64,000 bases of DNA. It comes from an uncultured Candidatus Saccharibacteria bacterium. GTDB lineage: Bacteria > Patescibacteriota > Doudnabacteria > UBA920. The translations under genes and the position numbers were made by a program. The number at the start of each line of letters is the position of its first letter. Positions within the stretch are counted from its first letter, which is position 1. This document shows, piece by piece, positions 8,054-51,298 of the stretch. Location of the stretch: the NCBI GenBank assembly GCA_964436545.1, contig CAYTCJ010000003.1:70041-134040 (forward strand), in the 5' to 3' direction. The notes under the pieces were generated by a model. It did no database searches. It saw only the letters and a list, made by a program, of their open reading frames with translations, and was not told the DNA's origin.

Positions 8054-8192
8054 GGATTCCGTATTAATCCGCCAGATGGCGGACGGAATGACACGTTATA
8101 GTTATGGATTCCCTAAAAAAGTCATGGATTCCGGCTCCCACCAGAGGTTGGCAGGCATGGCCGGAATGACAAAATTGGGGAAATGACAAATA
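8054..8192. repeat. Two tandem hairpin elements of the GGATTCCGG...CCGGAATGACA family (copies a and b)
   Basis: Copy a spans 8054-8093 (GGATTCCGT...ACGGAATGACA) and copy b spans 8126-8171 (GGATTCCGGC...GCCGGAATGACA). A third GAAATGACA tail lies at 8181. The spacer GTTATAGTTATGGATTCC is homologous to the spacer of copies c and d. Confidence 0.65.
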
Positions 8193-8452: not shown

Positions 8453-11400
8453 ATGAAACAAAAAATAAAGATTATAAAATTACTTAGTATAGCGGGATTT
8501 GTTGTATTTGCCAGTTTTTTATTTAATTTAAATGTCCAAGCTTTACCTTATGGAGGCAGTTGTGATGATGGAGATTTGTGCACTACTGACAGTTTTAATA
8601 ACGCAGATGGCCAATGTGAAAATATTCCAAAAGATTGTTCCGATACAAATGCGTGCACTGTTAACGAAACTTGTAATTCTGCTACTGGCCAATGTGAGAG
8701 TTCGCCTTTAAAATGTCCAGATGGTGAGCCTGCTCAATGTAAAAATTATACTTGTAATCCTGCGAGTGGTTGTGTGGTAACTAATATGCCCAATGGTAGT
8801 AGTTGTAATGGCAGTGGTGTAAGCTGTTCTATTACTTCGTTTGCTTGCAATAATGGTAGTTGTTCAGGTTCTGGTGGTCCGTATGCTTGCACAGCAAGTC
8901 GGTGCAATTTGGCAGGGACTTGCATAGATACCCCAACAGGTCCCAATGGTTGTACTACAGGTCCGGCTATTAATGTAGATGACGGTGATGCTTGCACCAA
9001 AGATTCTTGTGATGAAAATAGTGGCATTCAGAATATAAACCAACCAGTAGATGGCGGGTGGAGTGATCCAATATGTGGCGAATGGAGCTCTTGTTCCGGA
9101 AATCCTGGAACCCGAAGTAGAACTTGTACAAAGCAATGTAATAATCCAGCTCCTTCTTGTGAAGGAGATTATTGCCCAGGTTCAAATTCAGAAACGCAAA
9201 CCGAAGCTTGTGGTCAATGCACAGCTAACGAGGCTTGTGGAAGTGGTTCTTGCACCGGCACTCAATATTGCACCAATGGGGTGTTAAGTAGCTGTGATTA
9301 TAGTGCCAGTAATGGAGGTAGTTGTGATAGTGGTAATGGTGTGTGTGCTAATGGGACTTGTAATCCATCACCTGTGTGTGGCAATGGGGTGACGGAAGGT
9401 AACGAAACTTGCGACCAAGGTAGTGCCAATAATGGCGCTTGCCCTAAAACTTGCGGAAGTAATTGTCAAACCAACACTTGTATAAGTGGGGGAACTGGGG
9501 GAAGTGGTGGGTCTTGTGCGAGCAACGAAACAGCTTGTGGAAGCAATTGCTGTAATGACCAAAGTCAAATTTGTAATGCCCAAACGTTAACTTGTGTAAA
9601 TAAACCGGTGGTGAATTGTTTAAGTGCCAATGATTGCGATGATAACAACCCTTGCACCAGCAATATTTGTGGTTCAGATGGTAAATGCGATAATTCCCAA
9701 GGCACTTGTTATAAATGTTCTACTACTCCCAGCACGAATGGTTTTGGACATGTGAGTTATTGCAAGCAGAATGAAACGAGCGGGCAAGGTAGTTTTCAAT
9801 CATGTAGTGACTCATGTACTGGTGGCTCCGGTTCATCCTTTGTTTGCAACAACACCTGCTTTCCCAGCACGGCTTTTGGCGCTTGTCGGCAATTAAATAC
9901 CAATGTGCAGTGTATTGAATCTAGCGGAGGACAAACCCACTATTATAGGGTGACTTATACGGGCACGGTATGCGATGGCTTTAGCGGTAATCCGGTTGAC
10001 CCCAGTTGTACCACTTCGGGTTGTGCTTGCGTGCAAACTTCTTGCACTTATTCAGCTCAGCAAAATACGCCCGGAGTCTGGAATAGCGATGTGTTTAGTG
10101 GGAGTTGTGCCGGTAGTGGAAGCGGTGGGTCGGGTGGCACGGTCTGTGGAAATTTGGTAACCGAAGCGCCTACTGAACAGTGTGATGACGGGAATGTGGC
10201 TAATGGTGATGGCTGTAGTGCCTCTTGTCAAATTGAAAATAGTATTACCATTAACTCCATTCCGGTTTCGCAAGATGTTGTTAAAGGGAATTCTGCGGTT
10301 TATGCCATTAAGTCTACTTATTCCGGTGCGAGTATTGCCAATGCTAAATTTACGGTAAGTAATTGTCCGTCAGGTTCCACTTGCACTTTTGGCAGTGGCA
10401 GTAATACCCAAACCACTGCTTTTAACAGCAGTAAATTAGCCAGTGTAATTTTAACCGTGACCTCCGGCAGTAATTCCGCAGTGGCGAATAATACTTTAAA
10501 CGTGAAAGTGGAAAATGCAGTTTGTGCCGGACAGAGTGGCTGTTTGTCTGCCAATACCAACATTAATTTTAACGTGTTAAATCCAACTGTGGTGAATGCC
10601 AGTTCTTGTTTGGGCGATGTTACTGCGCCCGATGCGGTAAATGCGGGGGCGAGTTTTAATTATTCGGTAACCACGAAAAACGTGGGCAGTAGCACTTGGC
10701 ATAATGGCAGTAATGGACCAAATGTTTATGGCATTACGGCATGGCCCAGAAATGTAGATTATGTGTTTGGTGATCAGGTTACTATTTTGCCAACAAGCAG
10801 TGTATTACCTAATAACAACATCACTTTTAACGGCTCGGTAACTGCGCCTACCAATCCACCGGCGAAAGGCTGTACCCAAGTGGGAAATAATTTATACAGT
10901 TGTCCTTTAAGCTTAAGAATGTGGCAACATAATGTAGGCTGGTTTGGACCAATTTGTAATAAAAATATTAATGTTTCAGTAGCACCTCCAACAGTAAATT
11001 TAACTATTAATGATCGGACGGAAGATACTCTTAGCCGAGGTGGAAGTGGAACTTTTAGATGGACAACGAGTGATGCCAACAACTGTGTATCGTTAGGCAG
11101 TCAGGGTACTTGGAGCACGCAAGGGGGCGGACAACCGCTGATGTCTGCCGGTGCTACTGGTTCTTTGAGCAGTGGGTCGGTATCTACCGGCAGTTTAAGC
11201 CAACCCGGGTGGTGGCAATATAGCATTAGTTGCAGTAATAATTTTGGCGTAACCAACGATAGCGTATGGGTCTTTGTGCCGGATTGCAACGAGCCTCCGA
11301 GCTTAATTAGTTCTTCGGTGACTCCGGCTACGGTAGCTCCGGGGGGCAGTTATTCCATTGGGTGTAATTATGGTGTTCAGCCTACCACCACGACCATTAA

Positions 11401-14400
11401 TCCGGTTCCCAGCAGTGGCACTTGTTCGTTTATGGGTTGGTCCGGCACTGGCGCCAACTTTGCTTGCACAGCGCCAACGACTCCCAATACTTATCCAAAT
11501 TTATGCACCATTGGCACCAACAATTTAGGCCAAGCCAATACCATAGCTCCCCATTATTATTGTAAGCGCGACAGTGGCATTAATAGCACAGTCGTTTCTG
11601 CCGGACCGCCTCCTACTGTGGTTTTACAGGCTAATAACCAAGATACCAGCTCTGGTAGTCCCTTAGCTGTGCCTAGGAAACAATCTACGAATGTAAGTTT
11701 ATCTTGGACAGTAACTAATGCCACCAGTTGCACTGCCAGTAAATCTACAAGCGCGCCGGGCACTTTTACGGGTGATAAAAATTATACAAGCGGAAGTGAG
11801 GAAAAAACCGCTTTTATAACTCCCGGTGTTCATACCTATACTTTAACTTGCACAGGAGCGGGCGGGACAGCCAGCGACACCGCGTATATTTCTGTGCCTC
11901 AGTGTAATGCTACAACTTTTGTTGGCGGGAGTGTGTCGCCCGCAACTTTAACTTTACCCAACACAAGCTACACTTTAACTTGTGATTACGGAGTAAATAC
12001 CAATCAAATTTCTCCGGTAGTGGGCAGTGGATCTTGTGCATGGAGTGGAAATTGGAATGGAACTTCAGCGGTGTTTAATTGTACAGCTGGCAATACGCCA
12101 AATACTTACACAAACTCGTGTCGGTTAGTGCCAGAACAACCGGATGATTACTATTGTGCCAGCACTAATGCCATAAATAATTTAGTCATTCAACAGGCGA
12201 CCACTCCACCGCCTACCAATTTAAGCGCTGTATTGGCGACTTGTCCTTCTCGCAATGTAAATTTAACTTGGGCAAGCGGAGGAGGTAGCGGAGCGACTTA
12301 CAATGTTTATAGAAGCACGAGTAATAATAATAATTCGGCGTCTGCGAGTTTAGTGCAAGGCAGTATTAGCGCTTTAAGTTTTACCGATACGCCCAGTGCG
12401 GGTAGTAGTTATAACTACTGGGTATCTGCCAGCATTAATGGCGTGGAATCTACCCGTGTCTTAGCTACCGGCAGTCCGGTAGCGGTTACGGCTTGTGCGG
12501 GCAATGGTGCGCCGGTGGCAGTAGCAAAAATTTCTACCTACGATGGCGGTTATCAAAAAAGTATAACGGTTACCAAAGGCGTGCCTACAAGAATTTATCT
12601 TTCGGCCGACGAGAGTGATGATCCTAATGGATGGGGTGATAACCAATATGGTATGGATAGCGGAACTGCCAAGTGCGAATGGAATTACGATTTAGATCAA
12701 TCGGCCTTTAGTGTAGATAATACAGTAAGTCGTCCTTCTAGTAGAGGGAATTGTGATAATTTTTCTGAAAATGGGAGTTATAAAACCTTTAATGATACTC
12801 CCGGCACTTATACCTACCAGGTGTTAAGACTTACCGATAAACCCGGGGCAGTGTCTAATATTGATTTTGTCCAAGTAACAGTCCAAGAATTAAAACCGAC
12901 TATAGTATTAAGTCCCACGAGTTTTGTTTTTAATGCCGTTTTAAACGGCAGTAAACCTCCGGCGCAAGATTTACGCATTACCAATACCGGGAGCGGAGCT
13001 TTAAATTGGACTTTTGAACGCACAGGGAATGACCCGTGGTGTAATTTGCTTACAGCTTCGGGAACTAATATCCCGGTAAATTCCGGTGGAACTATTTTAG
13101 CTAATGGTGGATATGTAGATGTTAAGGTTTCGGTCAATGATCCGACAGTGGAAGGCAGTTTTTCTAATTGCGGTATTCGCATTAAAGATGCCAATGCCAC
13201 CAACAGTCCTCAAGATGCCGGTGTGACTTACAATGTGTCCAGTGCTTCGTGTCCGGTTGGTACGGTTTCGCTGTCTGCATCCACTATCAACCCCGGTCAA
13301 ACTGTTACGGCTTCCGCTCCCAGTGGCTTTAGCGGTGGCAGTTTTGCATCTTCTAATCTTGCGGTTGCCACAGTAAGCGGAACCACCATTAGCGGAGTTT
13401 CTACCGGCACCTCAAATATTTCCGGCACCGGCTTTAGCCACACCGGCGGAGCCACCAACTGCGCGCTTGCCTCAGCCACTTTAACTGTGAATAATGCGCC
13501 ACCCACCACCGGCACTATTAATGTGCGTTATGCTTTAGACAATAGCAATCAAGCCGGCAGTGTGAATATTAATTATGGAATAAGCGGGCCTTCGCCCGTA
13601 GCCAGTGGGAGTTATGCGGTAAGCGTGTCGTCTTCCCATCCTAATTCGCAACCCGGCAGTTATACTCTTACTTACAATTCCGGTGGCCCAGCCAATGCTT
13701 TAATCGATCCCAATACCCCTATTACACCTTCGGTTACCCAAAGTTTAACTGCCGGCAGTAGCATTACTTACACCTTTAACTTTTTAAGCAAACCGGCCCC
13801 GGTGTGTCCGACCGGATCGTGTTGTCCGGGCGGAGATAACAGTTCTACTACTTGCGGAGGCGGGGGAGGGAGTGGTGGAGGTTATACAGGCGTGGCTTGT
13901 AAGACCATTAAAATCAACTGGACCGATGGTTCTACCAATGAAGATGGGTTCTATGTGTATGCCAACCAAACCGGCACCGCGCCGGCAACTGCTGGCGAAA
14001 AGACCGCTCAAAGGGTGGCTACGGTTACCACCACCACTAAAGCCGGCACCGGCCAAGCGTATACGTATACTTTTAGTGCTCCCAATACCAACCCTTACTA
14101 TTTCTGGGTTTCGGCATATAATAATGCGGGTGGAGCCGGAGAGTCGGCATTAATGCCCATGAGTAATAACCCCATATCTGCCAACGACTGCACCGCGAAT
14201 ATTGTTTCGTCCGATAAAGATATGATTACCGTAGCCGGAGTGAATCCGACGGCGACAGCTTGTAATGGTTCCGCCGAAGGCACGTATTTAGGCGCCACTC
14301 CAATCAAGTTTTTTGGCGGAAATCTTATTACTTTTGCCATTAATGTGTGTAATAACAATAATAGCTTTTATGATGCAAAAGATGTAATTGTCACTGATTA

Positions 14401-14749
14401 TTTAACTAACCTCAAAAAACCCGCCACCGGGTGGAATACCAAACAATGCACCGGAGGGGGCGGGAGCGGAACTTGCACCAATCTTTCTGTCACAGAAGCG
14501 GGCACTTCGCCTAATCAAACCTTAACCTTTAGTTTGCAGAATGTCTTAATTGGGGAAGTAAAGAGTATTTTAGTCACAGCGGAAATTGCACCCGCACCGT
14601 TAGGTTCCACTTCGCGGTTTAATAACCGAGCAATTATAGATTATAAAAAAGAAGATGGTTCGCGCAGTAACCGACAAGCTTCCACGCCGTGGTTGCCGTA
14701 TTTTTCCGCCACTTCCACGCCTAGCAGGATAGAAATTCCGGGAAGATAG
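8453..14749 (+). CDS. Giant (2098 aa) secreted adhesin-like protein. It has a signal peptide, a ~560-aa Cys-rich region with Myxococcus-type cysteine-rich repeats, then Ig-like/FN3/Big_2-like domains and a C-terminal DUF11-like repeat.
   Basis: N-terminus MKQKIKIIKLLSIAGFVVFASFLFNLNVQA. Motifs CGNGVTEGNETCDQG and CGNLVTEAPTEQCDDGNVANGDGCSASCQIE match the Cys-rich repeat. The segment PPPTNLSAV...TWASGGGSGATYNVYRS is FN3-like. Confidence 0.85.
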   Translation: MKQKIKIIKLLSIAGFVVFASFLFNLNVQALPYGGSCDDGDLCTTDSFNNADGQCENIPKDCSDTNACTVNETCNSATGQCESSPLKCPDGEPAQCKNYTCNPASGCVVTNMPNGSSCNGSGVSCSITSFACNNGSCSGSGGPYACTASRCNLAGTCIDTPTGPNGCTTGPAINVDDGDACTKDSCDENSGIQNINQPVDGGWSDPICGEWSSCSGNPGTRSRTCTKQCNNPAPSCEGDYCPGSNSETQTEACGQCTANEACGSGSCTGTQYCTNGVLSSCDYSASNGGSCDSGNGVCANGTCNPSPVCGNGVTEGNETCDQGSANNGACPKTCGSNCQTNTCISGGTGGSGGSCASNETACGSNCCNDQSQICNAQTLTCVNKPVVNCLSANDCDDNNPCTSNICGSDGKCDNSQGTCYKCSTTPSTNGFGHVSYCKQNETSGQGSFQSCSDSCTGGSGSSFVCNNTCFPSTAFGACRQLNTNVQCIESSGGQTHYYRVTYTGTVCDGFSGNPVDPSCTTSGCACVQTSCTYSAQQNTPGVWNSDVFSGSCAGSGSGGSGGTVCGNLVTEAPTEQCDDGNVANGDGCSASCQIENSITINSIPVSQDVVKGNSAVYAIKSTYSGASIANAKFTVSNCPSGSTCTFGSGSNTQTTAFNSSKLASVILTVTSGSNSAVANNTLNVKVENAVCAGQSGCLSANTNINFNVLNPTVVNASSCLGDVTAPDAVNAGASFNYSVTTKNVGSSTWHNGSNGPNVYGITAWPRNVDYVFGDQVTILPTSSVLPNNNITFNGSVTAPTNPPAKGCTQVGNNLYSCPLSLRMWQHNVGWFGPICNKNINVSVAPPTVNLTINDRTEDTLSRGGSGTFRWTTSDANNCVSLGSQGTWSTQGGGQPLMSAGATGSLSSGSVSTGSLSQPGWWQYSISCSNNFGVTNDSVWVFVPDCNEPPSLISSSVTPATVAPGGSYSIGCNYGVQPTTTTINPVPSSGTCSFMGWSGTGANFACTAPTTPNTYPNLCTIGTNNLGQANTIAPHYYCKRDSGINSTVVSAGPPPTVVLQANNQDTSSGSPLAVPRKQSTNVSLSWTVTNATSCTASKSTSAPGTFTGDKNYTSGSEEKTAFITPGVHTYTLTCTGAGGTASDTAYISVPQCNATTFVGGSVSPATLTLPNTSYTLTCDYGVNTNQISPVVGSGSCAWSGNWNGTSAVFNCTAGNTPNTYTNSCRLVPEQPDDYYCASTNAINNLVIQQATTPPPTNLSAVLATCPSRNVNLTWASGGGSGATYNVYRSTSNNNNSASASLVQGSISALSFTDTPSAGSSYNYWVSASINGVESTRVLATGSPVAVTACAGNGAPVAVAKISTYDGGYQKSITVTKGVPTRIYLSADESDDPNGWGDNQYGMDSGTAKCEWNYDLDQSAFSVDNTVSRPSSRGNCDNFSENGSYKTFNDTPGTYTYQVLRLTDKPGAVSNIDFVQVTVQELKPTIVLSPTSFVFNAVLNGSKPPAQDLRITNTGSGALNWTFERTGNDPWCNLLTASGTNIPVNSGGTILANGGYVDVKVSVNDPTVEGSFSNCGIRIKDANATNSPQDAGVTYNVSSASCPVGTVSLSASTINPGQTVTASAPSGFSGGSFASSNLAVATVSGTTISGVSTGTSNISGTGFSHTGGATNCALASATLTVNNAPPTTGTINVRYALDNSNQAGSVNINYGISGPSPVASGSYAVSVSSSHPNSQPGSYTLTYNSGGPANALIDPNTPITPSVTQSLTAGSSITYTFNFLSKPAPVCPTGSCCPGGDNSSTTCGGGGGSGGGYTGVACKTIKINWTDGSTNEDGFYVYANQTGTAPATAGEKTAQRVATVTTTTKAGTGQAYTYTFSAPNTNPYYFWVSAYNNAGGAGESALMPMSNNPISANDCTANIVSSDKDMITVAGVNPTATACNGSAEGTYLGATPIKFFGGNLITFAINVCNNNNSFYDAKDVIVTDYLTNLKKPATGWNTKQCTGGGGSGTCTNLSVTEAGTSPNQTLTFSLQNVLIGEVKSILVTAEIAPAPLGSTSRFNNRAIIDYKKEDGSRSNRQASTPWLPYFSATSTPSRIEIPGR

Positions 14750-14912: not shown

Positions 14913-15004
14913 TGTCATTCCGGAAGCCCGGAGGACTATCCGGAATCCAGGTTTTGTTATGAGTTATGGATCCCGGCTCTCCTAAAGCCTCGGCCGGGAT
15001 GACA
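14913..15004. repeat. Gene-less pair of hairpin elements (copies c and d) in inverted configuration, MITE-like
   Basis: Copy c spans 14913-14949 (TGTCATTCCGG...CCGGAATCC) and copy d spans 14968-15004 (GGATCCCGGC...GCCGGGATGACA). The spacer GTTATGAGTTATGGATCC matches the spacer of copies a and b. Confidence 0.65.
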
Positions 15005-15666: not shown

Positions 15667-15935
15667 AATTTTATTAGTTATAGAACCTATGGGCTTACTA
15701 AATTTTAGTGTTCAGGCCAATGTGGAGAACCCAAAATTTAGCTTTTTATTGATAAGTGCTTCTCGACTCGCCTAAAAGACTCACTCGAAGACTATTAATA
15801 TACTAAATTGGTGGACCGTAGAAGTTTTAAATTAGTTGCTCTGCTGGGCCCACCCAGCAGAATCACATTGGAATTATTTTTTAGCGGAGAGTGAATAATT
15901 ATTAGGTATGGTGCTTAATTAATGTTTATTTAAGT

Positions 15936-17747
15936 TTAATTTCCAATGTTGCTCTGCTGGGCCCAAAAAATTAATTGACCGGTTTGGTTGCCAGGGTTAG
16001 CGCCTTGAGGGATGGTTAACGAACTTTCAATTACCGCTGTTTGACTGCCGGATACGGTTTTTTTGAATTGTTTCCAAAATTTACCTTCCAGAAGTAAGTT
16101 ATCCTTAAAGATGGGTCCGGTTTTAACCTCGGCTTCAAAGACTAAGGCTTTACTGCCTTGGTTTTTTAACGTTAAAGCTTTTTTGGCAGTTTGTCCACCC
16201 TTAAGTTGTCCAAAACTTAAACTGCCCGGTTCAATGGCAAAGGCAATAGTTTGGTTCGCCGGATTAGTAGTGGAGGCGCCCGCAACCGATCCGCTTTGCA
16301 CATCGACACTTAAATCTATGCCGGCAGTGCCGGGATTGCCGAATTTTAGCAAAGTTTTGGCGCTTCGGACAAACCCAGGTTTTTCCCCATAAATTTTATA
16401 GTAGCCATCGGGTAGGGAGAAGCTTACTTTGCCTTGGGAATTGGTGTTTGTGTCCGTAGTCAGGGGTGAAATTTTTACATTAGCCTCGGGCTTGTTAGTA
16501 GTGTCTTGGGATTCTACTAATAAATCTACATTCTGCCCGGAAGTTATTTCGGTAGGGGTAGCGGTAAGCTTTAACGGTTTTATGGCAATGTCGCCATAAG
16601 CCCAGAGCACTTCATCGCCTTCTTTAAGTTGATAATCTGTGGCGGATTGGTTTAACTTCACCAAATTTACCCAGTATTGCCAACCGCTATTTCCGCTGGC
16701 TTCTTCGGCGTTAATTTTAGTTAAATAATTTCCATCTTTAATGTTATAGGTATATCCGCAAAGCGTGGTAGCGGTTTTAATAATGTCCATAGGCGTAGTG
16801 CCCGGGGTTTTGCCTTCGCAAATGGTTTCGCTTAAGCCTTCAATTCTAAAGTTGTACTGGAGTTTAACCGGCGTAATAATGTTTAGCGGGAGAGTTTTGC
16901 CTTCTAAGGCAATTATGGCCCATGCGGTATTGTCGGCACTTAAAGCATTTTCTCCCAAACCCGGATAGATAAAATAACCAAAAGTGTGCTGGTAGCTTTC
17001 TAAATAATCTTTGGGAGTTTTTCCGGACTTTTGCCAATCTGCCAAATTGGCTTTTAAAGCATTCAGCGTCCACATAACCCAAGCGGTAGAAGAGGTGTCG
17101 CTGTCCGTGCCCCATTCAGATTTTGGGTCATAGGTAAAACCGCCATCAGAATTCTGACAGGTTTTTAAAAAGTTAATGGCAGATGTAATTTTTGTATCGG
17201 TAGGGGAGATGCCCACGGCGAGTAAGGCTAAGATGGCAGAAGCCGTAGTGTTAGAATCACTGGAAGCCGACAAGGCATAACCCCAGCCACCATCGGAACT
17301 TTGTTTGGCTAAAACAAATTTTTTGGCATCTTCAATTATGCTATCGTTAAGCGGTTCGCCCGAGGCGACTAAAGCCAAAATGCCAAAAATGTCATCGTTC
17401 ACGGTTTGGGTATCGCCAATTTGGTTAGCCGTGTAAAAAGTTTTTAATTTGGCGACTAAATCTTGCGAACCGAATTTTCTGGGGTCTTGACCAACGGCAG
17501 TAATGGCTAAAATCGGTTTGGTAAAATCAATGGCATGGGTGCCGGAAACAGTTTTTAAATAATCCAAATCCAAACCGGTTTTCCCTAAAGCGGTAAGTCC
17601 CATAGTTGACCAGCCGTTATTGCTGTGGGCCAATAAATATTTTTCGGCTGAAGTTTTGTCGTAAGCTTTCGCAACTGTGAGCGGAGAAAAAAAGCTCAAG
17701 GTCAAGCTTAAGAGTAGGAGACTGGCATAAAACGATTTGCTTTTCAT
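15936..17747 (-). CDS. secreted protein with prenyltransferase/squalene-cyclase-like (alpha/alpha-toroid) repeats and C-terminal beta-rich domains
   Basis: Signal peptide MKSKSFYASLLLLSLTLSFFSPLTVAKA. Repeated motifs SSDGGWGY and QNSDGGFTY resemble terpenoid-cyclase/prenyltransferase repeats. Confidence 0.65.
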   Translation of the reverse strand: MKSKSFYASLLLLSLTLSFFSPLTVAKAYDKTSAEKYLLAHSNNGWSTMGLTALGKTGLDLDYLKTVSGTHAIDFTKPILAITAVGQDPRKFGSQDLVAKLKTFYTANQIGDTQTVNDDIFGILALVASGEPLNDSIIEDAKKFVLAKQSSDGGWGYALSASSDSNTTASAILALLAVGISPTDTKITSAINFLKTCQNSDGGFTYDPKSEWGTDSDTSSTAWVMWTLNALKANLADWQKSGKTPKDYLESYQHTFGYFIYPGLGENALSADNTAWAIIALEGKTLPLNIITPVKLQYNFRIEGLSETICEGKTPGTTPMDIIKTATTLCGYTYNIKDGNYLTKINAEEASGNSGWQYWVNLVKLNQSATDYQLKEGDEVLWAYGDIAIKPLKLTATPTEITSGQNVDLLVESQDTTNKPEANVKISPLTTDTNTNSQGKVSFSLPDGYYKIYGEKPGFVRSAKTLLKFGNPGTAGIDLSVDVQSGSVAGASTTNPANQTIAFAIEPGSLSFGQLKGGQTAKKALTLKNQGSKALVFEAEVKTGPIFKDNLLLEGKFWKQFKKTVSGSQTAVIESSLTIPQGANPGNQTGQLIFWAQQSNIGN

Positions 17748-38371: not shown

Positions 38372-39511
38372 ATGACATCCGAATTAATTCTTAAAGACGG
38401 CACACGGTACGAAGGAGTGAGTTTTGGTGCCAATCTCCCTGCTTTTGGCGAAGTGGTGTTTATTACCGGTATGGTCGGGTATCCGGAATGTTTTACCGAC
38501 CCCAGTTTTAAGGGGCAAATTTTGGTAATGACCTATCCGCTGTTGGGAAATTACGGGGTGCCAGACAAAAAAACTTGGGAGTCAGACAGAGTTCAAATTT
38601 CCGGTTTGGTAGTGTGCAATTATATAGACACGCCGAGTCATTACACCTCTCAGCAAACTTTAGCCCAGTGGCTCAAACAACAAGGAGTGCCGGCTTTGGA
38701 AATTAAAGATACACGGGGTTTGACGCAAAAATTAAGAACACACGGAGTAATGCTGGGACGTTTTGTCATTCCGGCCAAGTCCCGACTAAATTCGGGACAC
38801 GAGCCGGAATCTAAAAAAATAGATTCCCTCCGTGGGTTGGCGGATCGCGGGAATGACAAAGAGCAAGAATTTCAGGATCCCAACCTGCGTAATTTGGTGG
38901 CTGAAGTTTCCTGTAAAAAACCTTATATGGTTGAAAACCGCAATCCTTCGACTTCACTCAGGGCAGGAAAAACTGTGGCGTTAATTGATTGCGGAGCCAA
39001 ATTTAATATTGCGCGTTCGTTAGCTAAACGGGGAGTAAAAGTGTTAGTGGTGCCCTGGCAGACCGATGTTTTGAAATTAAAACAGAAAATTCATGGTGTA
39101 ATGATTTCCAACGGACCGGGCGACCCACAAATGGCTAAAGCCACGATTGAAAATGTGAGAAAAATTTTAGCTAAAAAATTGCCCACGTTTGGGATTTGTT
39201 TAGGCAACCAGATTTTAGCACTGGCAGGCGGAGGCACCACGTATAAACTTAAGTTTGGCCACCGAGGGCAAAACCAGCCGGCGGTGTTAGCGGGCACCCA
39301 CAAAGCTTACTTAACGACGCAAAACCACGGGTTTGCCGTGGGAAAAATCCCCAAAGGTTTTAGAGAATGGTTTTATAATGGGAACGATAAGACCAACGAG
39401 GGGATTATTCACAAGAGCTTGCCGTTTATGTCGGTGCAGTTTCATCCCGAAAGCTACCCGGGCCCAACCGATACCGATTGGTTGTTTGATGAATTTATAA
39501 AAAAATTGTAA
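38372..39511 (+). CDS. carA: carbamoyl-phosphate synthase small (glutaminase) subunit
   Basis: GICLGNQILALAGGG is the class-I glutamine-amidotransferase Cys motif. HGFAV and HPE give the triad context. Confidence 0.9.
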   Translation: MTSELILKDGTRYEGVSFGANLPAFGEVVFITGMVGYPECFTDPSFKGQILVMTYPLLGNYGVPDKKTWESDRVQISGLVVCNYIDTPSHYTSQQTLAQWLKQQGVPALEIKDTRGLTQKLRTHGVMLGRFVIPAKSRLNSGHEPESKKIDSLRGLADRGNDKEQEFQDPNLRNLVAEVSCKKPYMVENRNPSTSLRAGKTVALIDCGAKFNIARSLAKRGVKVLVVPWQTDVLKLKQKIHGVMISNGPGDPQMAKATIENVRKILAKKLPTFGICLGNQILALAGGGTTYKLKFGHRGQNQPAVLAGTHKAYLTTQNHGFAVGKIPKGFREWFYNGNDKTNEGIIHKSLPFMSVQFHPESYPGPTDTDWLFDEFIKKL

Positions 39512-39536: not shown

Positions 39537-42500
39537 ATGAAAAAATTTAAAAAAATTCTTATCTTAGGCAGTGGGGCGCTTAAAATCGGCGAGGCCGGGG
39601 AGTTTGATTATTCCGGCAGTCAAGCCATTAAAGCCTTAAAAGAAGCGGGGATTAAGTCCGTGTTAATTAATCCCAATATTGCCACTTTTCAGACCTCGAA
39701 AGCTTTAGCCAACCAAGTGTATTTTTTGCCGGTAAACCCTTATTTTGTGGAACAAGTTATAAAGAAAGACAGGCCCGATGGCATCTTGTTGTCTTTTGGC
39801 GGGCAGACGGCTTTAAATTGCGGTTTGGCTTTGGAAAAATCCGGCGTATTAAAAAAATATCACGTGCAAGTTTTAGGCACGCCGGTTAAATCCATTGAGC
39901 TTACCGAAGACCGCCAAATGTTTGCCGATCATTTAAAAACCCTCAATATTCCGGTGCCGGTAAGCGGTACTGCCACCACTTTAGCCGAGGCGCAAAAAGT
40001 TGCCGAGCAGATTGGTTTGCCGGTAATGGTGCGGGCAGCGTTTACTTTGGGCGGACAAAAATCCGGCGTAGCCAAAACCGCTAAACAATTAAAGGAAATT
40101 GTGAATGGCGCTTTGGCAGTAAGTCCACAAGTGTTAATTGAAAAATATTTACATCACTATAAAGAAGTGGAATACGAAGTGGTGAGAGATAGGTTTGATA
40201 ACTGTGTGACCGTGTGTAATATGGAAAATTTTGACCCTTTGGGCATCCACACCGGAGATTCCATAGTCATTGCGCCGAGTCAGACTTTAACTAATCACGA
40301 GTACCATAGCTTAAGAGAAGCTTCCATAAAAATTGTTAAATCTTTAGGGATTGTGGGCGAATGCAACGTACAGTTTGCCTTGAATCCACGCGGACTAACG
40401 CGAAATTTAACGCGGACTAAAGCGGAAGCTGTAGGTTCCTCCCCCCTTGTGGGGGAGGCTAGGAGGGGGGATCAACCGGACTATTATGTGATTGAGGTCA
40501 ATGCCCGGCTTTCAAGATCCTCTGCGCTGGCTTCCAAAGCTACGGGCTATCCTTTGGCGTATGTGGCAGCCAAGTTAGCTTTGGGTAAAAGTTTGCTGGA
40601 AGTGCAAAATAAAATTACCCAAGTTACTCAAAGTTTTTTTGAACCGGCTTTAGACTATGTGGTGGTTAAAATGCCTCGTTGGGATTTGGAAAAATTTAAA
40701 GGTGCGGAAGAAAAAATCGGTTCGGCAATGAAGTCAGTCGGTGAGGTTATGGCGATTGGCAGAAATTTTGAAGAAGCCCTGCAAAAAGCGGTGCGAATGC
40801 AATCGGGTCAAACCGAAAGCATTACCGATAACGGTTTTGCCAATCATACTGCCATTAAAGAATTTTTAACCACTCCGACGCCTCGCCGGGTCTTTGCTGT
40901 GTCAGCAGGTTTAAAAGCCGGCATGTCAGTAAAGACGATTCATAAGTTAACCGGCATTGACCCTTGGTTTTTATACCGAATAAAAAATATTGTAGACGCG
41001 GAGAGGGAACTGATAAACCCAACCGGTAATTCCCTCCCCCCTGTGGGGACGGTTAGAGCTAGCCCCGTACTTGATACGGGGGAGAGGGTAAAGATTGAGC
41101 ATCAGACTTTGTTAAACCTTAAACGATTGGGTTTTTCCGACAAAAAAATTGGCCAGCTGTGTGGCCAGACCGAATTTGCCATTAGACGTTTGCGTAAGGC
41201 TTACCAAATTCATCCTTCCATTTTTCAAATTGATACTTTAGCCGGCGAAGTGCCGGCGCAGACCAATTATTTGTATCTTACATACCATGGCGGGCATAAC
41301 GATGTAAAACCTCTGGGTAAAAATGCGGTTTTGGTTTTAGGTAGCGGACCTTACCACATTGGCAGTAGCGTGGAATTTGATTGGTCGTGTGTGCATGCGG
41401 CTTTGCAATTAAAAAAACATCGGAAACATTCGGTAATCATTAATTGTAATCCGGAAACCGTATCTACCGATTACGATATGTCCGACCGACTGTATTTTGA
41501 AAATTTGTCTTTTGAAACCGTGGCGGATATTTTTGAATGGGAACACGCCGGGGGTTTGGTAATTTCCGTGGGCGGGCAAAGGCCTAACAATTTAGCGAAA
41601 AAATTATCCCGGGAAGGGTTTAAACTCCTTGGGACTTCGGCAGAGAATATTGACCGCGCGGAAGACCGAGTAAAATTTTCGGCTTTGTTGGATAAGCTGG
41701 GGATTTTGCAACCCAAGTGGGAAAGTTTTTCCAACTTAAAGACTGCGGAAAAATTTGCGGAAATGGTAGGTTATCCGGTTTTGGTGCGTCCGTCGTATGT
41801 GCTGTCCGGCAGTGCCATGAGCGTGTGTTATAACCAGGCTCAGCTGGAAACTTTTTTAAGTAAAGCGGTAGTCTTAGGCGCCGAGCATCCGGTGACCATT
41901 TCCAAATTTGTAGAAAACGCTAAAGAATTGGAGTTCGATGCCGTGGCGCAAAACGGCCAGTTAATGATTTATGCCATTTCCGAACACGTGGAAAATGCCG
42001 GAGTGCACAGCGGGGATGCCACGATTGTGTATCCCACGCAAAGAGTGTATGCGTCCACCGAGTTTCAGTTAAGGCAAATTGCCAAAAAAATCGCGCGGGA
42101 ATTAAAAGTAACGGGTCCCTTTAACATTCAGTTTTTAGTTAAAGATAACAAGCCTTCGGTAATTGAGGTGAATTTGCGGGCGAGTCGAACTTTTCCGCTT
42201 TTGTCCAAAGCTTTAGACGCCAATTTTCCGGAAATGGCAGTGGATGCGTTTTTTGGCAAAGCCAAAAAATTTGATTACGAATACCCCAACCGTGTAGTTG
42301 TTAAGTCGCCTCAATTTTCTTTTGCTCGGCTAAGCGGAGCAGATCCGGTGTTGCGAGTGGAAATGTCTTCTACCGGAGAAGTGGCGGCTTTTGGGCGCAC
42401 TTATGACGAAGCGTTAATTAAGTCCATTATGTCCGCGAATAATTTTAGTTTTGCCAAGAAGCAAGTGTTATTATCTTTGGGCGGGGAGTTAAATAAAGTC

Positions 42501-42893
42501 AAATTTGTGGAATCGGCTCAGATTTTACAAACTTTAGGGTATACGATTTTTGCCACCGATAGCACAGCCAAATTTTTAACCAGTCAAGGGCTTAAGTGCC
42601 AAACGGTAAAAAAGGTTTCCGAAGGTTCGCCGAATGTGGTGGATTTGGTGCAAAGCAAAACTGTGGCTTTTGTGGTAAACTTAAGTCAGCAGAGCGTAAG
42701 AACCGCCCCGAGCCGGCAACATCAACATTTAACCGACGGTTACCATATTCGGCGAGCCACGGTAGATAACCAAATTCCTTTGTTTACCGATTTGCATTTG
42801 GCCCGAGCGTTTATTAAAGCTTTAAGTAATTTTAAATTAGAAGATTTGGAAATAAAAAGTTATAAAGAATATTTAAAAAATGACAAAAGTTAA
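39537..42893 (+). CDS. carB: carbamoyl-phosphate synthase large subunit, with two in-frame GC-rich insertions
   Basis: MKKFKKILILGSGALKIGEAGEFDYSGSQA... with duplicated ATP-grasp halves. Extra segments relative to the conserved ...NPR/VIEVNARLSRSSALASKATG context lie at 40386-40492 and 41022-41092. Confidence 0.93.
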   Translation: MKKFKKILILGSGALKIGEAGEFDYSGSQAIKALKEAGIKSVLINPNIATFQTSKALANQVYFLPVNPYFVEQVIKKDRPDGILLSFGGQTALNCGLALEKSGVLKKYHVQVLGTPVKSIELTEDRQMFADHLKTLNIPVPVSGTATTLAEAQKVAEQIGLPVMVRAAFTLGGQKSGVAKTAKQLKEIVNGALAVSPQVLIEKYLHHYKEVEYEVVRDRFDNCVTVCNMENFDPLGIHTGDSIVIAPSQTLTNHEYHSLREASIKIVKSLGIVGECNVQFALNPRGLTRNLTRTKAEAVGSSPLVGEARRGDQPDYYVIEVNARLSRSSALASKATGYPLAYVAAKLALGKSLLEVQNKITQVTQSFFEPALDYVVVKMPRWDLEKFKGAEEKIGSAMKSVGEVMAIGRNFEEALQKAVRMQSGQTESITDNGFANHTAIKEFLTTPTPRRVFAVSAGLKAGMSVKTIHKLTGIDPWFLYRIKNIVDAERELINPTGNSLPPVGTVRASPVLDTGERVKIEHQTLLNLKRLGFSDKKIGQLCGQTEFAIRRLRKAYQIHPSIFQIDTLAGEVPAQTNYLYLTYHGGHNDVKPLGKNAVLVLGSGPYHIGSSVEFDWSCVHAALQLKKHRKHSVIINCNPETVSTDYDMSDRLYFENLSFETVADIFEWEHAGGLVISVGGQRPNNLAKKLSREGFKLLGTSAENIDRAEDRVKFSALLDKLGILQPKWESFSNLKTAEKFAEMVGYPVLVRPSYVLSGSAMSVCYNQAQLETFLSKAVVLGAEHPVTISKFVENAKELEFDAVAQNGQLMIYAISEHVENAGVHSGDATIVYPTQRVYASTEFQLRQIAKKIARELKVTGPFNIQFLVKDNKPSVIEVNLRASRTFPLLSKALDANFPEMAVDAFFGKAKKFDYEYPNRVVVKSPQFSFARLSGADPVLRVEMSSTGEVAAFGRTYDEALIKSIMSANNFSFAKKQVLLSLGGELNKVKFVESAQILQTLGYTIFATDSTAKFLTSQGLKCQTVKKVSEGSPNVVDLVQSKTVAFVVNLSQQSVRTAPSRQHQHLTDGYHIRRATVDNQIPLFTDLHLARAFIKALSNFKLEDLEIKSYKEYLKNDKS
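40386..40492. repeat. In-frame GC-rich hairpin insertion 1 in carB
   Basis: ACGCGGACTAA occurs twice, followed by the hairpin CCTCCCCCC-TTGT-GGGGGAGG and then AGGAGGGGGGATCAACCGG. It encodes RGLTRNLTRTKAEAVGSSPLVGEARRGDQPD. Confidence 0.5.
41022..41092. repeat. In-frame GC-rich hairpin insertion 2 in carB (related to insertion 1)
   Basis: AACCGGTAATTCCCTCCCCCCTGTGGGGACGG is followed by the hairpin CCCCGTA-CTTGA-TACGGGG. It shares CCTCCCCCCT.GTGGGG and AACCGG with insertion 1. It encodes PTGNSLPPVGTVRASPVLDTGER. Confidence 0.5.
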
Positions 42894-45951: not shown

Positions 45952-46361
45952 TGGTGGAGATGCCGGGAGTTTAACCCGGGTCCAACATTTATCTATCTTT
46001 TTATTCTTCACAAGCTTAGTTAGCTTAATATCCGCCAAAGGCGGACTTTAATGTTTGTTAGCTAACCAAACAACATTAAAGTTGATTTAGAATGCCTTAG
46101 GTATGTTAGTCTAAATCATGCCAACATATCGCATCCCAAAATAAGCTTGGGGATCTTTTCTTTGGGAGAAGAAAAGGCCAAGTGTTGTTACCTATTAGGC
46201 TACAACAGGAACTAAATCGGCAGCTTTAAAGGCGGCAACGACTTTGTTCCAAGAGTTTTCTATAGCATTTATAGATGCTTGGGGTAGTTTAACGAGATAG
46301 TCCAAGCTTGCTCGTCTTGCATATAAAAAGATGTCAAAGTGCTGTCAAAAACCGTCATCCC
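45952..46361 (-). ncRNA. ssrA: tmRNA (SsrA)
   Basis: The minus-strand 3' end GGACCCGGGTTAAACTCCCGGCATCTCCACCA matches the tmRNA tRNA-like 3' end consensus GGAC.CGGGTTCAACTCCCGCCAGCTCCACCA. The 5' end GGGGATG pairs with CATCTCC to form the acceptor stem. The candidate tag reading frame is ...GCCGCCUUUAAAGCUGCCGAUUUAGUUCCUGUUGUAGCC-UAA-UAG (AAFKAADLVPVVA, double stop). Confidence 0.7.
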
Positions 46362-46486
46362 CATAAACCATTGGCATAGTATCAAGTTTTAGGTTTAAAT
46401 GCAATGGTTCTATGGTATAAATTTGATTTTTTGGGTTATAATTTATTATAATAATTAATATAAATTATTAAACTTAATTAATAGTT

Positions 46487-49500: not shown

Positions 49501-50046
49501 TTATTTTGGCGTGTATTTGTTAATGAGTTCTTTTAAAATTTGCTCATACTGTTTACGAATAGTCGGATCTGAGCCGATTTCCAAAACTTCATCGTTTAAA
49601 TTGGTGGCAGAAGCTGTCCAGTTAAAACTTCCGCTGGCATATTGTTTTTCTGTCACTAAAGCTTTTAAATGCATAATGGCACTGTGGTCGTGCTCAAAAA
49701 CCGGAATGCCCGCATTTTTAAGTTCCGTGACAATTTTATTTTGCAGTTCTATGTCGCGGGTTTGTTTTTTATCTACCACGCCAATTATTTTAACGCCTCG
49801 GTATTGGGCGGCTAAGAGGGCGTCTTTAATGTCTAAGCGAGTAAAAGTGTAAATGGCAAAATACACATACTCATTTGCCTCTCTAATTACCTGAATAATT
49901 GCTTTGTTGAGTTGGTGGTCCTGATTATAAAAGACTTGAACTTCTCTTTGTGGTAAATAGCGGTGAGTGTAATAGACTTGAGCCGAGAAGGCAATTAGTA
50001 AAATAATTACCGCTATGTAAATTTTTTCTTTGTGTTTCGGAGCCAT
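49501..50046 (-). CDS. phospholipase-D-like (HKD, Nuc-like) domain protein with an N-terminal membrane anchor
   Basis: HLKALVTEKQYASGSFNWTASA corresponds to H.K....(D/E)......GS.N of the PLD/Nuc HKD motif. N-terminal transmembrane helix IYIAVIILLIAFSAQVYY. Confidence 0.65.
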   Translation of the reverse strand: MAPKHKEKIYIAVIILLIAFSAQVYYTHRYLPQREVQVFYNQDHQLNKAIIQVIREANEYVYFAIYTFTRLDIKDALLAAQYRGVKIIGVVDKKQTRDIELQNKIVTELKNAGIPVFEHDHSAIMHLKALVTEKQYASGSFNWTASATNLNDEVLEIGSDPTIRKQYEQILKELINKYTPK

Positions 50047-50056
50047 ATTATAGTGC

Positions 50057-50445
50057 TGTCATTCCGAATCCTGATATCCATCAGGACAAGTTTATTTCGG
50101 AATCTAAAAATTAAATAATTTTATTATATAAATCGTCCCAATTGGGATTTAGTGATTCAATCAAATTTATTTTCCAGTTTCTGTGCCAATTTTTTAATTG
50201 TTTTTCTCTTAAGATTGCCGATTCAACATTTTCAGTCATTTCATAATAGACTAATTTATGAAGTTTGTATTTTTTTGTGAATCCTTCCACTATATTATTT
50301 TTATGTTCATAAACTCTTCTAATTAGATTGTTTGTGACCCCAACATAAAGCACCCCTAAAGGTTTATTGCTTAGCATATAAATGTAATAAGTTTTCATGT
50401 TTTTATTTTATAAAAGATAGATTCTGAAACAAGTTCAGAATGACA
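50057..50445. mobile_element. Candidate ~390-bp mini-element: a GIY-YIG nuclease gene bounded by inverted hairpin terminal repeats of the GGATTCCGG...CCGGAATGACA family
   Basis: The left end is TGTCATTCCGAATCC...TTTCGGAATC (50057-50104, reverse orientation). The right end is GATTCTGAAC-AA-GTTCAGAATGACA (50420-50445). The plus strand therefore reads TGTCATTC...GAATGACA. The right end lies 5 nt from the smpB stop. Confidence 0.45.
50111..50398 (-). CDS. stand-alone GIY-YIG endonuclease-domain protein (~95 aa, UPF0213/YhbQ-like)
   Basis: YYIYMLSNKPLGVLYVGVTNNLIRRVYEHKN is a canonical GIY-(10 aa)-YVG...R..EH GIY-YIG motif. Confidence 0.8.
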   Translation of the reverse strand: MKTYYIYMLSNKPLGVLYVGVTNNLIRRVYEHKNNIVEGFTKKYKLHKLVYYEMTENVESAILREKQLKNWHRNWKINLIESLNPNWDDLYNKII

Positions 50446-50450
50446 GAGTA

Positions 50451-50882
50451 TTAGAATGTTTTCCTAATTTCTCTTTCCATATCTCGTTTTTTTATGGTTT
50501 CGCGTTTGTCCGTTTGCTTTTTGGCTTTGCCAATGCCCAGTTTGATTTTTAGCCAACCTTTGGGCGTAGTAAAAATTTCCAAAGGCACAATCACCAAACC
50601 TTTTTCTTTGCCCAATAATTCGTTGATTTCTTTTTGTTGTAAAAGCAATTTACGGGTTTGGGTGGGGTTGTAGCCGGTTTGGTGAGCGTATTTGTAAGCT
50701 CCAATATGAGCATTGATTAAATTGACGGAATTGTTTGCCGTGGTTACATAAGCGCCAATTAAAGACACATTGCCGTTTTTTATACTTTTGACTTCTGCGC
50801 CGGTTAATACCAAACCTGCCACGAAAGTGTTTTTAATTTCGTAGTCAAAATAAGCTCGTTTGTTGGTTGCTAATGTGGACAT
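50451..50882 (-). CDS. smpB: SsrA-binding protein SmpB
   Basis: NKRAYFDYEIKNTFVAGLVLTGAEVKSIKNGNVSLIGAYV...TRKLLLQQKEINEL matches the SmpB consensus. Confidence 0.9.
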   Translation of the reverse strand: MSTLATNKRAYFDYEIKNTFVAGLVLTGAEVKSIKNGNVSLIGAYVTTANNSVNLINAHIGAYKYAHQTGYNPTQTRKLLLQQKEINELLGKEKGLVIVPLEIFTTPKGWLKIKLGIGKAKKQTDKRETIKKRDMEREIRKTF

Positions 50883-50944
50883 GATTTAAAATCCTAACCG
50901 TAATATGCTATAATGAATATAAATTCATTAAAGTAGTCTATTTT

Positions 50945-51238
50945 ATGCCAAGAATAACACATGGCGAAACTTATGGTACTGAGGTGGGGATTAATTTAGA
51001 AGTTATTCGTAAAGAATTAGCCAGATTGGGCGGAAAGGATGCAGAGGTACAGTTGCGTTACAAATTGGCTGAAACCGGTGATTACGGCAAGGGTCCTTTT
51101 GTGTTAGTAGATGTGAGATTTCCTAAATTTCCTAAAGGTATGGGGCAGACCACATTAGGCGGTATTGCGGTTTTTAAAAATAGTTCTGGTAAGTCTTTTG
51201 AGCTTTCCAGTTCGTATTTGTTACCAATCCCAAAATAA
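50945..51238 (+). CDS. hypothetical small protein
   Basis: 97-aa ORF with no motif. Confidence 0.4.
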   Translation: MPRITHGETYGTEVGINLEVIRKELARLGGKDAEVQLRYKLAETGDYGKGPFVLVDVRFPKFPKGMGQTTLGGIAVFKNSSGKSFELSSSYLLPIPK

Positions 51239-51298
51239 TATATATAGTTTACCTTGTTTCACCTTTTTTGTCATATTATGTTATAATAAACTCAACTT

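Follow-up and report, generated by a model that had tools for sequence, protein, structure and literature searches.

Within a 64,000-nt stretch of contig CAYTCJ010000003.1, from an uncultured Patescibacteriota bacterium (hereafter the window), the intergenic region between smpB and a PLD-like gene carries a small GIY-YIG nuclease gene bounded on both sides by hairpin repeats. This unit very probably represents an Ssn system, that is, an ssnA-type GIY-YIG gene between two copies of its cognate SRM/NTS-like hairpin, the latter belonging to the CGTC/TGTC-tagged class of repetitive extragenic palindromes (REPs). The arrangement is a further example of an already described architecture, here with AT-rich, long-loop hairpins and outward-facing tags, and it is not a new kind of mobile element, since the Ssn arrangement was described in 2025. 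The first-pass annotation of this DNA could place the architecture in no described family; yet NTS-ssnA-NTS and SRM-ssn-SRM units are reported in PMC11893778, and the hairpins had been catalogued in 2013 (PMC3733652). The finding extends the Ssn/hairpin system to an uncultured lineage whose hairpin variant is overlooked by the published motif, so that motif-based surveys will under-count the system.

Neisseria meningitidis SsnA, a GIY-YIG protein of 94 aa with a single domain, binds the NTS hairpin (CGTCATTCCCGCGMAVGCGGGAATCYRG) only as single-stranded DNA (ssDNA) and on one strand only, cuts a few nucleotides upstream and does not bind RNA; the base C just after the palindrome is the most critical for binding (Chenal et al., Nat Commun 2025, PMC11893778). 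Its homologs (CDD cd10448, GIY-YIG_unchar_3) have at least one flanking SRM in 71% of cases and SRMs on both sides in 42%, and the same authors noted the resemblance of NTS-ssnA-NTS to an insertion sequence and proposed domestication. In the CGTC-tagged REPs a tag, CGTC or TGTC, is combined with a stem of 8-9 bp that starts with AT, a loop of 4-5 nt and a CCA tail; they occur mostly as dimers in opposite orientation, also as in-frame intragenic dimers of 20-30 aa, and include dRS3 of Neisseria and RPE-4/RPE-6 of Rickettsia conorii (Di Nocera et al., BMC Genomics 2013, PMC3733652). No associated enzyme was found in that survey, which concluded that these repeats "lack a dedicated transposase" and which was made without candidate-phyla or metagenome-assembled lineages.

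The Gene and Its Flanking Hairpins

The features of the unit and its two neighbors are as follows.

49501-50046, minus strand: PLD-like gene (PF13091), start codon at 50044-50046
50057..50104, plus strand: left (gene-distal) hairpin, TGTC tag, 8-bp outer stem ATTCCGAA/TTCGGAAT, 27-nt loop
50111..50398, minus strand: ssnA-like gene, 95 aa, single-domain GIY-YIG nuclease (Pfam and ortholog alignment)
50420..50445, minus strand: right (gene-proximal, 5' of the start codon) hairpin, canonical form TGTC-ATTCTGAA-CTTGT-TTCAGAAT-C
50451-50882, minus strand: smpB (PF01668), stop codon at 50451-50453

The open reading frame (ORF) at 50111..50398, already proposed to encode a 95-aa GIY-YIG protein, does so: its product matches Pfam GIY-YIG PF01541 over residues 4-78 (E=1.2e-15), the sole domain matched. 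A search of the PDB with this protein returned no close solved relative, with UPF0213 BH0048 and SLX1 appearing only at E values of 0.4-0.6, and an NCBIfam scan gave no specific model, only TIGR01453 below threshold. The published delimitation of the Ssn family asks for a BLASTP match to Neisseria SsnA at E<1e-10 over at least 75% of the sequence, in a single-domain protein of ~94 aa and less than 150 aa (PMC11893778). Against the N. gonorrhoeae SsnA ortholog the window protein is 48% identical over 90/90 residues with no gaps; it exceeds that threshold, since E=2e-33 over the whole of this gonococcal reference. The same relationship emerges from a tblastn search of PLSDB (7.3 Gb), where the N. 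gonorrhoeae match has E=5e-23. Six residues (Y7, Y18, G20, R28, H32, and E65) are invariant in an alignment of 26 homologous sequences, and three of these, Y7, Y18, and E65, align with the gonococcal residues equivalent to the catalytic Y6, Y17, and E64 of SsnA. At two further loci (L015 and L047, homologs 58-62% identical to the window protein) the flanking repeats match the Neisseria NTS consensus, GTCATTCCCGCGAAAGCGGGAATCCAG, exactly.

The gonococcal reference used throughout is L142:1501-1773, which covers residues 5-94 in the numbering of PMC11893778, and not N. meningitidis CAX49033.1. It fits that numbering (Y6, Y17, E64, last residue 94) and sits in an array of dRS3/NTS hairpins. L142 (NZ_CP119142.1, 1880219-1883488) is part of a 2.17-Mb N. 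gonorrhoeae chromosome filed in PLSDB as a plasmid. The ATG found 5' of ssnA in this strain does not lie in the conserved reading frame, and the region carries no annotation, so that this ssnA copy may be a pseudogene or another start may be used.

The unit takes up ~391 of the 404 nt between smpB and the PLD-like gene, ending 4-5 nt from the smpB stop codon, close to the 5 bp first given, and 9-10 nt from the PLD-like start codon. Its plus strand starts with TGTCATTCCGAA...TTCGGAATC (50057-50104) and ends with GATTCTGAAACAAGTTCAGAATGACA (50420-50445). The termini form a 13-nt inverted repeat, 92% complementary (CTGTCATTCCGAA/TTCAGAATGACAG), and each end also folds individually as a hairpin, with the TGTC tags outermost. 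Hairpin inverted terminal repeats had been proposed on first reading, and these hold; the loop of the right end was slightly mistranscribed, the plus strand reading ATTCTGAA/ACAAG/TTCAGAAT rather than GATTCTGAAC-AA-GTTCAGAATGACA. On the minus strand the right hairpin is TGTCATTCTGAA-CTTGT-TTCAGAATC, with an 8-bp stem and a 5-nt loop (z=-2.9). The left hairpin, folded as ssDNA, has a free energy of -11.2 kcal/mol (z=-4.5); its loop holds an inner palindrome, TCCTGATATCCATCAGGA (50069-50086), and its palindrome is followed by the 3' C and then TAA.

Hairpins are not confined to the gene. The window contains eight in total, two flanking the ssn gene and six others as three pairs:

8055-8092 and 8127-8170, minus strand: gene-less hairpins in the same orientation, 5' of a giant gene, plus a solo GTCAT at 8184-8188
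14914-14947 (plus strand) and 14969-15003 (minus strand), span 14913..15004: gene-less pair, tags outermost, 3' of the giant 2098-aa gene
38765-38811 (plus strand) and 38822-38857 (minus strand), span 38764..38858: gene-less pair, tags outermost, in frame inside carA

The first two sets (first placed at 8054-8192 and 14913-15004) are real, and the pair inside carA had been missed. Our hairpin finder, which looks for GTC followed by a stem of at least 7 bp starting with AY and a loop of up to ~60 nt, returned 13 matches over the window against 2.2 in shuffled controls, and eight of the 13 end in ATC. The pattern GGATYCY-N8-38-RGRATGAC matches four times (0.00 in shuffles) and GRAATGACA occurs seven times (0.93 in shuffles). 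These comparisons rule out chance as the origin of the window hairpins. All eight have a TGTC tag, an AT-initiated stem of 7-8 perfect pairs and a C immediately 3' of the palindrome, and on ssDNA folding the stem begins exactly at the AT of GTCAT in every one of them. The tails read CCA in four and CTA in four. Only the hairpin at 50420-50444 has a loop of 5 nt; in the remaining seven the loop measures 14-27 nt and often contains an inner palindrome.

Association of Gene and Hairpins across Phyla

The ssn family yields 3,323 matches, the best of them 63-72% identical to the window protein, and the hosts of the best homologs include Patescibacteria, Alpha-, Beta-, and Gammaproteobacteria, Zixibacteria, Nitrospirota, Bacteroidota, and others. 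We examined 80 homologous genome loci for hairpin density and 75 for arrangement. On average 1.05 hairpins lie in the 150 nt upstream of the gene and 1.31 in the 150 nt downstream, compared with ~0.05 per 150 nt beyond 450 nt, an enrichment of ~20-fold within 150 nt of the gene. The base after the palindrome is C in 241/242 of these hairpins although the finder did not demand it, and the commonest among them is the 25-nt type of the right hairpin of the window. Their 5' stem arms come in 53 distinct sequences; this diversity is not independent evidence for structure, because pairing is imposed by the finder. Upstream hairpins are mostly forward (61 forward, 23 reverse) and downstream hairpins mostly reverse (38 forward, 60 reverse), the commonest combination being forward/reverse (25 of the 75 loci), ahead of forward/forward (11) and reverse/forward (6). 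The window unit, forward upstream and reverse downstream on the sense strand and hence with its tags outermost, is of the commonest though not universal type.

Several points weigh against the assignment of the window unit to the Ssn system. The published SRM string (HGTCWYN(0-2)YYVSBRHN(0-5)WNVSBRGN(0-2)RNCYNB, both sides within 500 bp) gives no match in the window, which is why our own tag-plus-stem finder was used instead, and it matches at only 10 of the 75 homologous loci. Furthermore, the protein comparison rests on a gonococcal ortholog minus its first four codons. Finally, the hairpins around the gene are oriented opposite to those of the Neisseria locus examined, where the nearest hairpins have their tags facing the gene, and so the functional consequence of cutting may differ. 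The first of these is explained by the string itself, which demands GC-rich stems and loops of at most 5 nt, whereas the window hairpins are AT-richer and seven of eight have longer loops.

Truncated hairpin copies, made up of the tag and 5' arm only, were also observed 16-28 nt upstream of full hairpins in 31 of 241 cases. They are found upstream of ssn at L005, L015, L017, L027, L033, L035, L041, L045-L047, L066, and L069, and in the window at 8171-8188. Often they repeat the ~10 nt preceding the tag, and look like tandem "stutter" duplications that would start close to the expected cut site and extend as far as the hairpin loop.

In five loci from Bradyrhizobium-type Alphaproteobacteria (L050, L052, L067, L073, and L079) an ssn homolog with two hairpins lies between dnaN and recF. 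This synteny implies long vertical residence, and the position hints at a host role that might be linked to ssDNA gaps. An Atrimonadaceae chromosome carries two ssn copies (L035 and L040) whose identity reaches well beyond the hairpins on both sides. These shared flanks point to segmental duplication and not transposition, and we dropped the pair as a guide to the element ends for the same reason.

Turnover among Close Relatives

The first-pass annotation had suggested comparing the region downstream of smpB with related genomes lacking the insertion. For this purpose close relatives were drawn from the members of 90% clusters; a metagenome scan with SmpB as query gave nothing above 50% identity, too distant for an empty-site test. 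The relatives at loci L129-L136 keep the same gene order, with ArgS 91%, SmpB 92-96%, PLD 87%, and the next gene 93% identical. Their smpB-PLD gap lacks the ssn unit as well as tagged hairpins, and contains instead a 125-aa gene of the four-helix-bundle, 23S-rRNA intervening sequence (IVS) type (TIGR02436). The site is not empty, as another cassette sits there, and the replacement extends into smpB and PLD, over ~5 codons at the end or the start of the gene. The relatives yielded no empty site with matching flanks, and none of the four hairpin pairs of the window shows a target-site duplication. An ssn ortholog 88% identical to that of the window (P0002) is found just after smpB in another metagenome.

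The IVS-like cassette is outside rRNA, and in L129-L136 a perfect 17-bp inverted repeat bounds it, CATTTTATCATTTTAAC / GTTAAAATGATAAAATG at L131:3969-4383, which is orthologous to window 50047-50450.

Relatives about 90% identical also show gain or loss of hairpins at three more sites. The pair at 14914-15003 is absent from the orthologous convergent-gene gap of L137, L139, and L140, which holds an unrelated spacer of ~57 nt or a VapBC module. Conversely, the relatives have a hairpin pair between a 603-aa and a 198-aa gene where the window has unrelated sequence. Lastly, 5' of the giant gene there are three tandem hairpins in L140 against two in the window, the difference being a single 70-nt indel of a spacer plus one hairpin. 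Together with the other cassette at smpB-PLD, these differences indicate fast turnover of the system. Individual hairpins differ as well: the hairpin at 8055-8092 has in its loop an extra 13-nt inner palindrome (GTCATTCCGT[CCGCCATCTGGCGGA]TTAATACGGAATC), whereas its copy at L140:8029-8053 is canonical, with a 5-nt loop (GTCATTCCGTACTTGATACGGAATC). The left end of the ssn unit has a nested palindrome in its loop likewise (TCCTGATATCCATCAGGA).

An ancient linkage of smpB and ssn was considered and rejected. Distant relatives (L085, L091, L097, L098, L105, L114, and L119; SmpB 44-50% identical) do have small GIY-YIG genes ~20-600 nt downstream of smpB, encoding 82-99 aa, 34-40% identical; these belong to other subfamilies and lack tagged hairpins.

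Intragenic Hairpins in carA and carB

The hairpin dimer inside carA (38372-39511, plus strand) is translated in frame, roughly as VIPAKSRLNSGHEPESKKIDSLRGLADRGNDK, resembling the in-frame REP dimers RPE-4/RPE-6 of Rickettsia. Relative to human CPS1 it is an insertion (query residues 131->165 against chain residues 172->179) that lengthens the linker between the two CarA domains by ~27-32 residues, and every relative 94-97% identical has it too. The two hairpins are separated by 10 nt, TAAAAAAATA, which match the inner junctions of the gene-bearing unit, TAAAAA...(A)GATA. Such a match would fit an internal deletion of the gene-bearing unit, but is only suggestive because the spacer is of low complexity.

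Compared with human CPS1 and Escherichia coli CarB, carB (39537-42893, plus strand) encodes 28 additional residues in frame, at ~40392-40478. This insertion holds a different, G/C hairpin, CCTCCCCCC-TTGT-GGGGGAGG, preceded by GTAG and short direct repeats (CGCGGACTAA...), and a second similar hairpin lies 600 nt further on in carB, at 41033-41052. These may represent a second, GTAG-type family of palindromic elements inserted in coding sequence.

A Probable Mode of Action

The characterized Neisseria and Wolbachia enzymes suggest how the window protein is likely to act, and it is by analogy with them that we ascribe to it ssDNA cleavage, cut positions and a biological role. Where the DNA becomes single-stranded, as in replication gaps, recombination intermediates or incoming ssDNA, the strand 5'-TGTC-AT...stem-loop-stem...AT-C would fold as a hairpin. 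The nuclease would bind this hairpin-forming strand only, recognizing both the sequence of the stem and the C that directly follows the palindrome, and would nick it a few nucleotides 5' of the tag. Given that the tags face outward and that Ssn cuts 5' of the tag, both strands are predicted to be nicked immediately beyond the unit, the plus strand at ~50047-50056 and the minus strand at ~50446-50450. The other six hairpins, bracketing the giant surface-type gene and lying inside carA, would be further targets, and cutting there would shorten or break ssDNA recombination substrates near the marked loci. The module probably reached the smpB-PLD gap in recent times, by arrival or by exchange, and the likeliest route is recombination or horizontal transfer of the cassette as a whole.

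Alternative Explanations

A more ambitious possibility is that the unit is an autonomous selfish mini-element, in which the nuclease mobilizes the hairpin-bounded cassette and the gene-less pairs are MITE-like (miniature inverted-repeat transposable element) derivatives or landing pads. Chenal et al. (PMC11893778) also raised a mobile-element hypothesis, and the first reading of this DNA came to a similar view. The geometry is inviting, for outermost tags put the predicted nicks just outside both ends and the gene-less pairs share this layout, the carA spacer echoing the inner junctions of the unit. The distribution fits too, with 60-72% identical homologs across many phyla, the unit present here and near smpB on the contig of the 88%-identical ortholog while another cassette occupies the site where SmpB is 92-96% identical, and hairpins gained or lost at three more sites, in one case by the 70-nt indel of one hairpin and its spacer; the truncated 5' copies could be a repair footprint. 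Nevertheless, neither an empty site with matching flanks nor a target-site duplication was seen, and neighboring sequence was replaced along with the unit. The two unit ends are only family-related, with different stems and loops, and the orientation of the hairpins varies among loci and is reversed at the Neisseria locus. The window holds a single copy of the gene in 64 kb, the dnaN-recF synteny indicates long residence, the two Atrimonadaceae copies reflect segmental duplication, and phage genomes gave no match and IMG/VR few. In addition, GIY-YIG chemistry is hydrolytic: these nucleases hydrolyze DNA, and no strand joining by them is known. We regard an autonomous mini-element as possible but doubtful. 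What stands of the earlier proposal is the recurrent unit of gene and inverted hairpins, the gene-less pairs and the turnover, while self-mobility of the unit is a plausible but unproven hypothesis. The locus, with its cassette swap, hairpin gain and loss and reversed orientation, offers a natural experiment on whether Ssn nucleases move themselves and their hairpins.

A still broader proposal is that Ssn is the mobilizing enzyme of the CGTC-tagged REPs as a whole. The unit would then be autonomous via ssDNA nicks, the gene-less dimers, including in-frame ones in essential genes, would be derivatives or landing pads, and the "stutter" copies, single-hairpin indels and nested palindromes would be repair footprints of nicking. 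We put this forward tentatively and consider it rather improbable.

It is far less probable that the hairpins are RNA-level signals (terminators, mRNA stabilizers or RNase sites) beside which the GIY-YIG gene lies by coincidence. REPs of this class lie for the most part downstream of ORFs and may function as RNA elements (Di Nocera et al., PMC3733652); in the window the right hairpin follows smpB and the 14914-15003 pair lies between convergent genes. Yet the sense strand of smpB, ssn, and PLD has no terminator-like site, only the inner palindrome on the antisense strand being of that kind. One pair is translated in frame inside carA, the ~20-fold enrichment beside a single gene family extends across phyla, a constant tag and 3' C are unneeded by terminators, and SsnA does not bind RNA (PMC11893778).

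That the gene is a free-standing homing endonuclease of the Seg/I-TevI kind, spreading by double-stranded cuts in alleles without it, is hardly credible. In its favor are the GIY-YIG fold, the sporadic distribution and a hit, though a weak one (E=6e-4), to TIGR01453, a model of group I intron endonucleases. However, the cut-off of that model is 56.05 bits and the hit reaches 19.8, the 95-aa protein consists of the catalytic domain alone and has no DNA-binding domain, the Ssn family recognizes hairpins flanking its own gene and so occupied sites rather than empty ones, and the gene was found in 0 of 50,697 phage genomes and at just 15 loci in IMG/VR.

Comparison with Known Systems

The Ssn systems of Neisseria are the closest counterpart of the window unit. 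Apart from the ungapped resemblance of the ~94-95-aa proteins and the shared catalytic Tyr/Tyr/Glu, hairpins stand on either side of the gene in both, combining a (C/T)GTC tag with a palindrome that begins with AT and a C behind the stem. Additional hairpins enclose a large surface-type gene, a layout also seen with the NTS clusters of Neisseria. The window differs in its AT-richer stems, in its long loops with nested palindromes, in the tags facing away from the gene, and in having one intragenic pair where NTS are rarely intragenic (2% in N. meningitidis). Its host is uncultured, apparently of small genome size, and outside the RefSeq set of PMC11893778. With the CGTC-tagged REPs the window hairpins share the unpaired tag, the 8-bp stem starting with A-T then T-A, and 3-nt tails that are of the CCA type in four of eight; the canonical loop of 4-5 nt is seen in one of the eight only, the others being expanded.

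The REP/RAYT "REPtrons" and IS200/IS605 elements provide a looser parallel, as they too have a small nuclease gene bracketed by ssDNA hairpins that its product recognizes and dispersed gene-less doublets (REPIN-like). Their enzyme is a HUH/Y1 transposase and their tag GTAG, whereas the window protein matches GIY-YIG only, and no covalent intermediate or strand-transfer chemistry is known for the Ssn enzyme. I-TevI and the Seg homing endonucleases have the GIY-YIG catalytic fold and a patchy distribution in common with the window protein, which differs by the absence of a DNA-binding domain, a score below the TIGR01453 cut-off, its expected target (ssDNA hairpins) and its absence from the phages searched.

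Beyond the question of mobility, the window documents intragenic and gene-bracketing hairpin copies in a small uncultured genome, and Ssn/hairpin pairs are potential sequence-specific ssDNA-cutting reagents.

Other Features of the Window

The remaining annotated features are the following.

8453-14749, plus strand: giant gene, 2098 aa, Cys-rich, surface-type, flanked by hairpins at 8055-8188 and 14913-15004
45952-46362, minus strand: tmRNA gene (Rfam RF00023, 118.7 bits), the only match at Rfam gathering thresholds, with its partner smpB 4 kb away

The layout of the giant gene and its hairpin pairs is like the "NTS-gene-NTS" layout of Neisseria surface-protein loci. In relatives this gene encodes 1615 to ~2001 aa and has 70-76% nucleotide identity, against 94-99% for the neighboring genes, and a VapBC (PIN) module lies at the place of the 3' hairpin pair of the window.

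A 699-aa ORF at 5745-7844 (minus strand) lies in a segment of 59% GC, adjacent to the hairpins at 8055-8170, compared with ~41% for the rest of the window. We rejected a recent island as its explanation: the segment is conserved in L140 at 75-81% nucleotide identity, so it was not gained recently by this genome alone.

Between smpB and argS the window has an insertion of ~355 nt (50886-51245) where relatives have ~60 nt and no insertion. It carries an orphan 97-aa ORF (50945-51238, plus strand) with no Pfam or NCBIfam match, the sole member of its 90% cluster. Finally, a direct repeat of ~31 nt (TGGGCCCAGCAGAGCAACATTGGAAATTAAA) at window ~15835-15965 (also at L140:1-170) duplicates the 3' end of the 603-aa gene; the repeats bracket ~100 nt of AT-rich sequence and look like the footprint of another small insertion.

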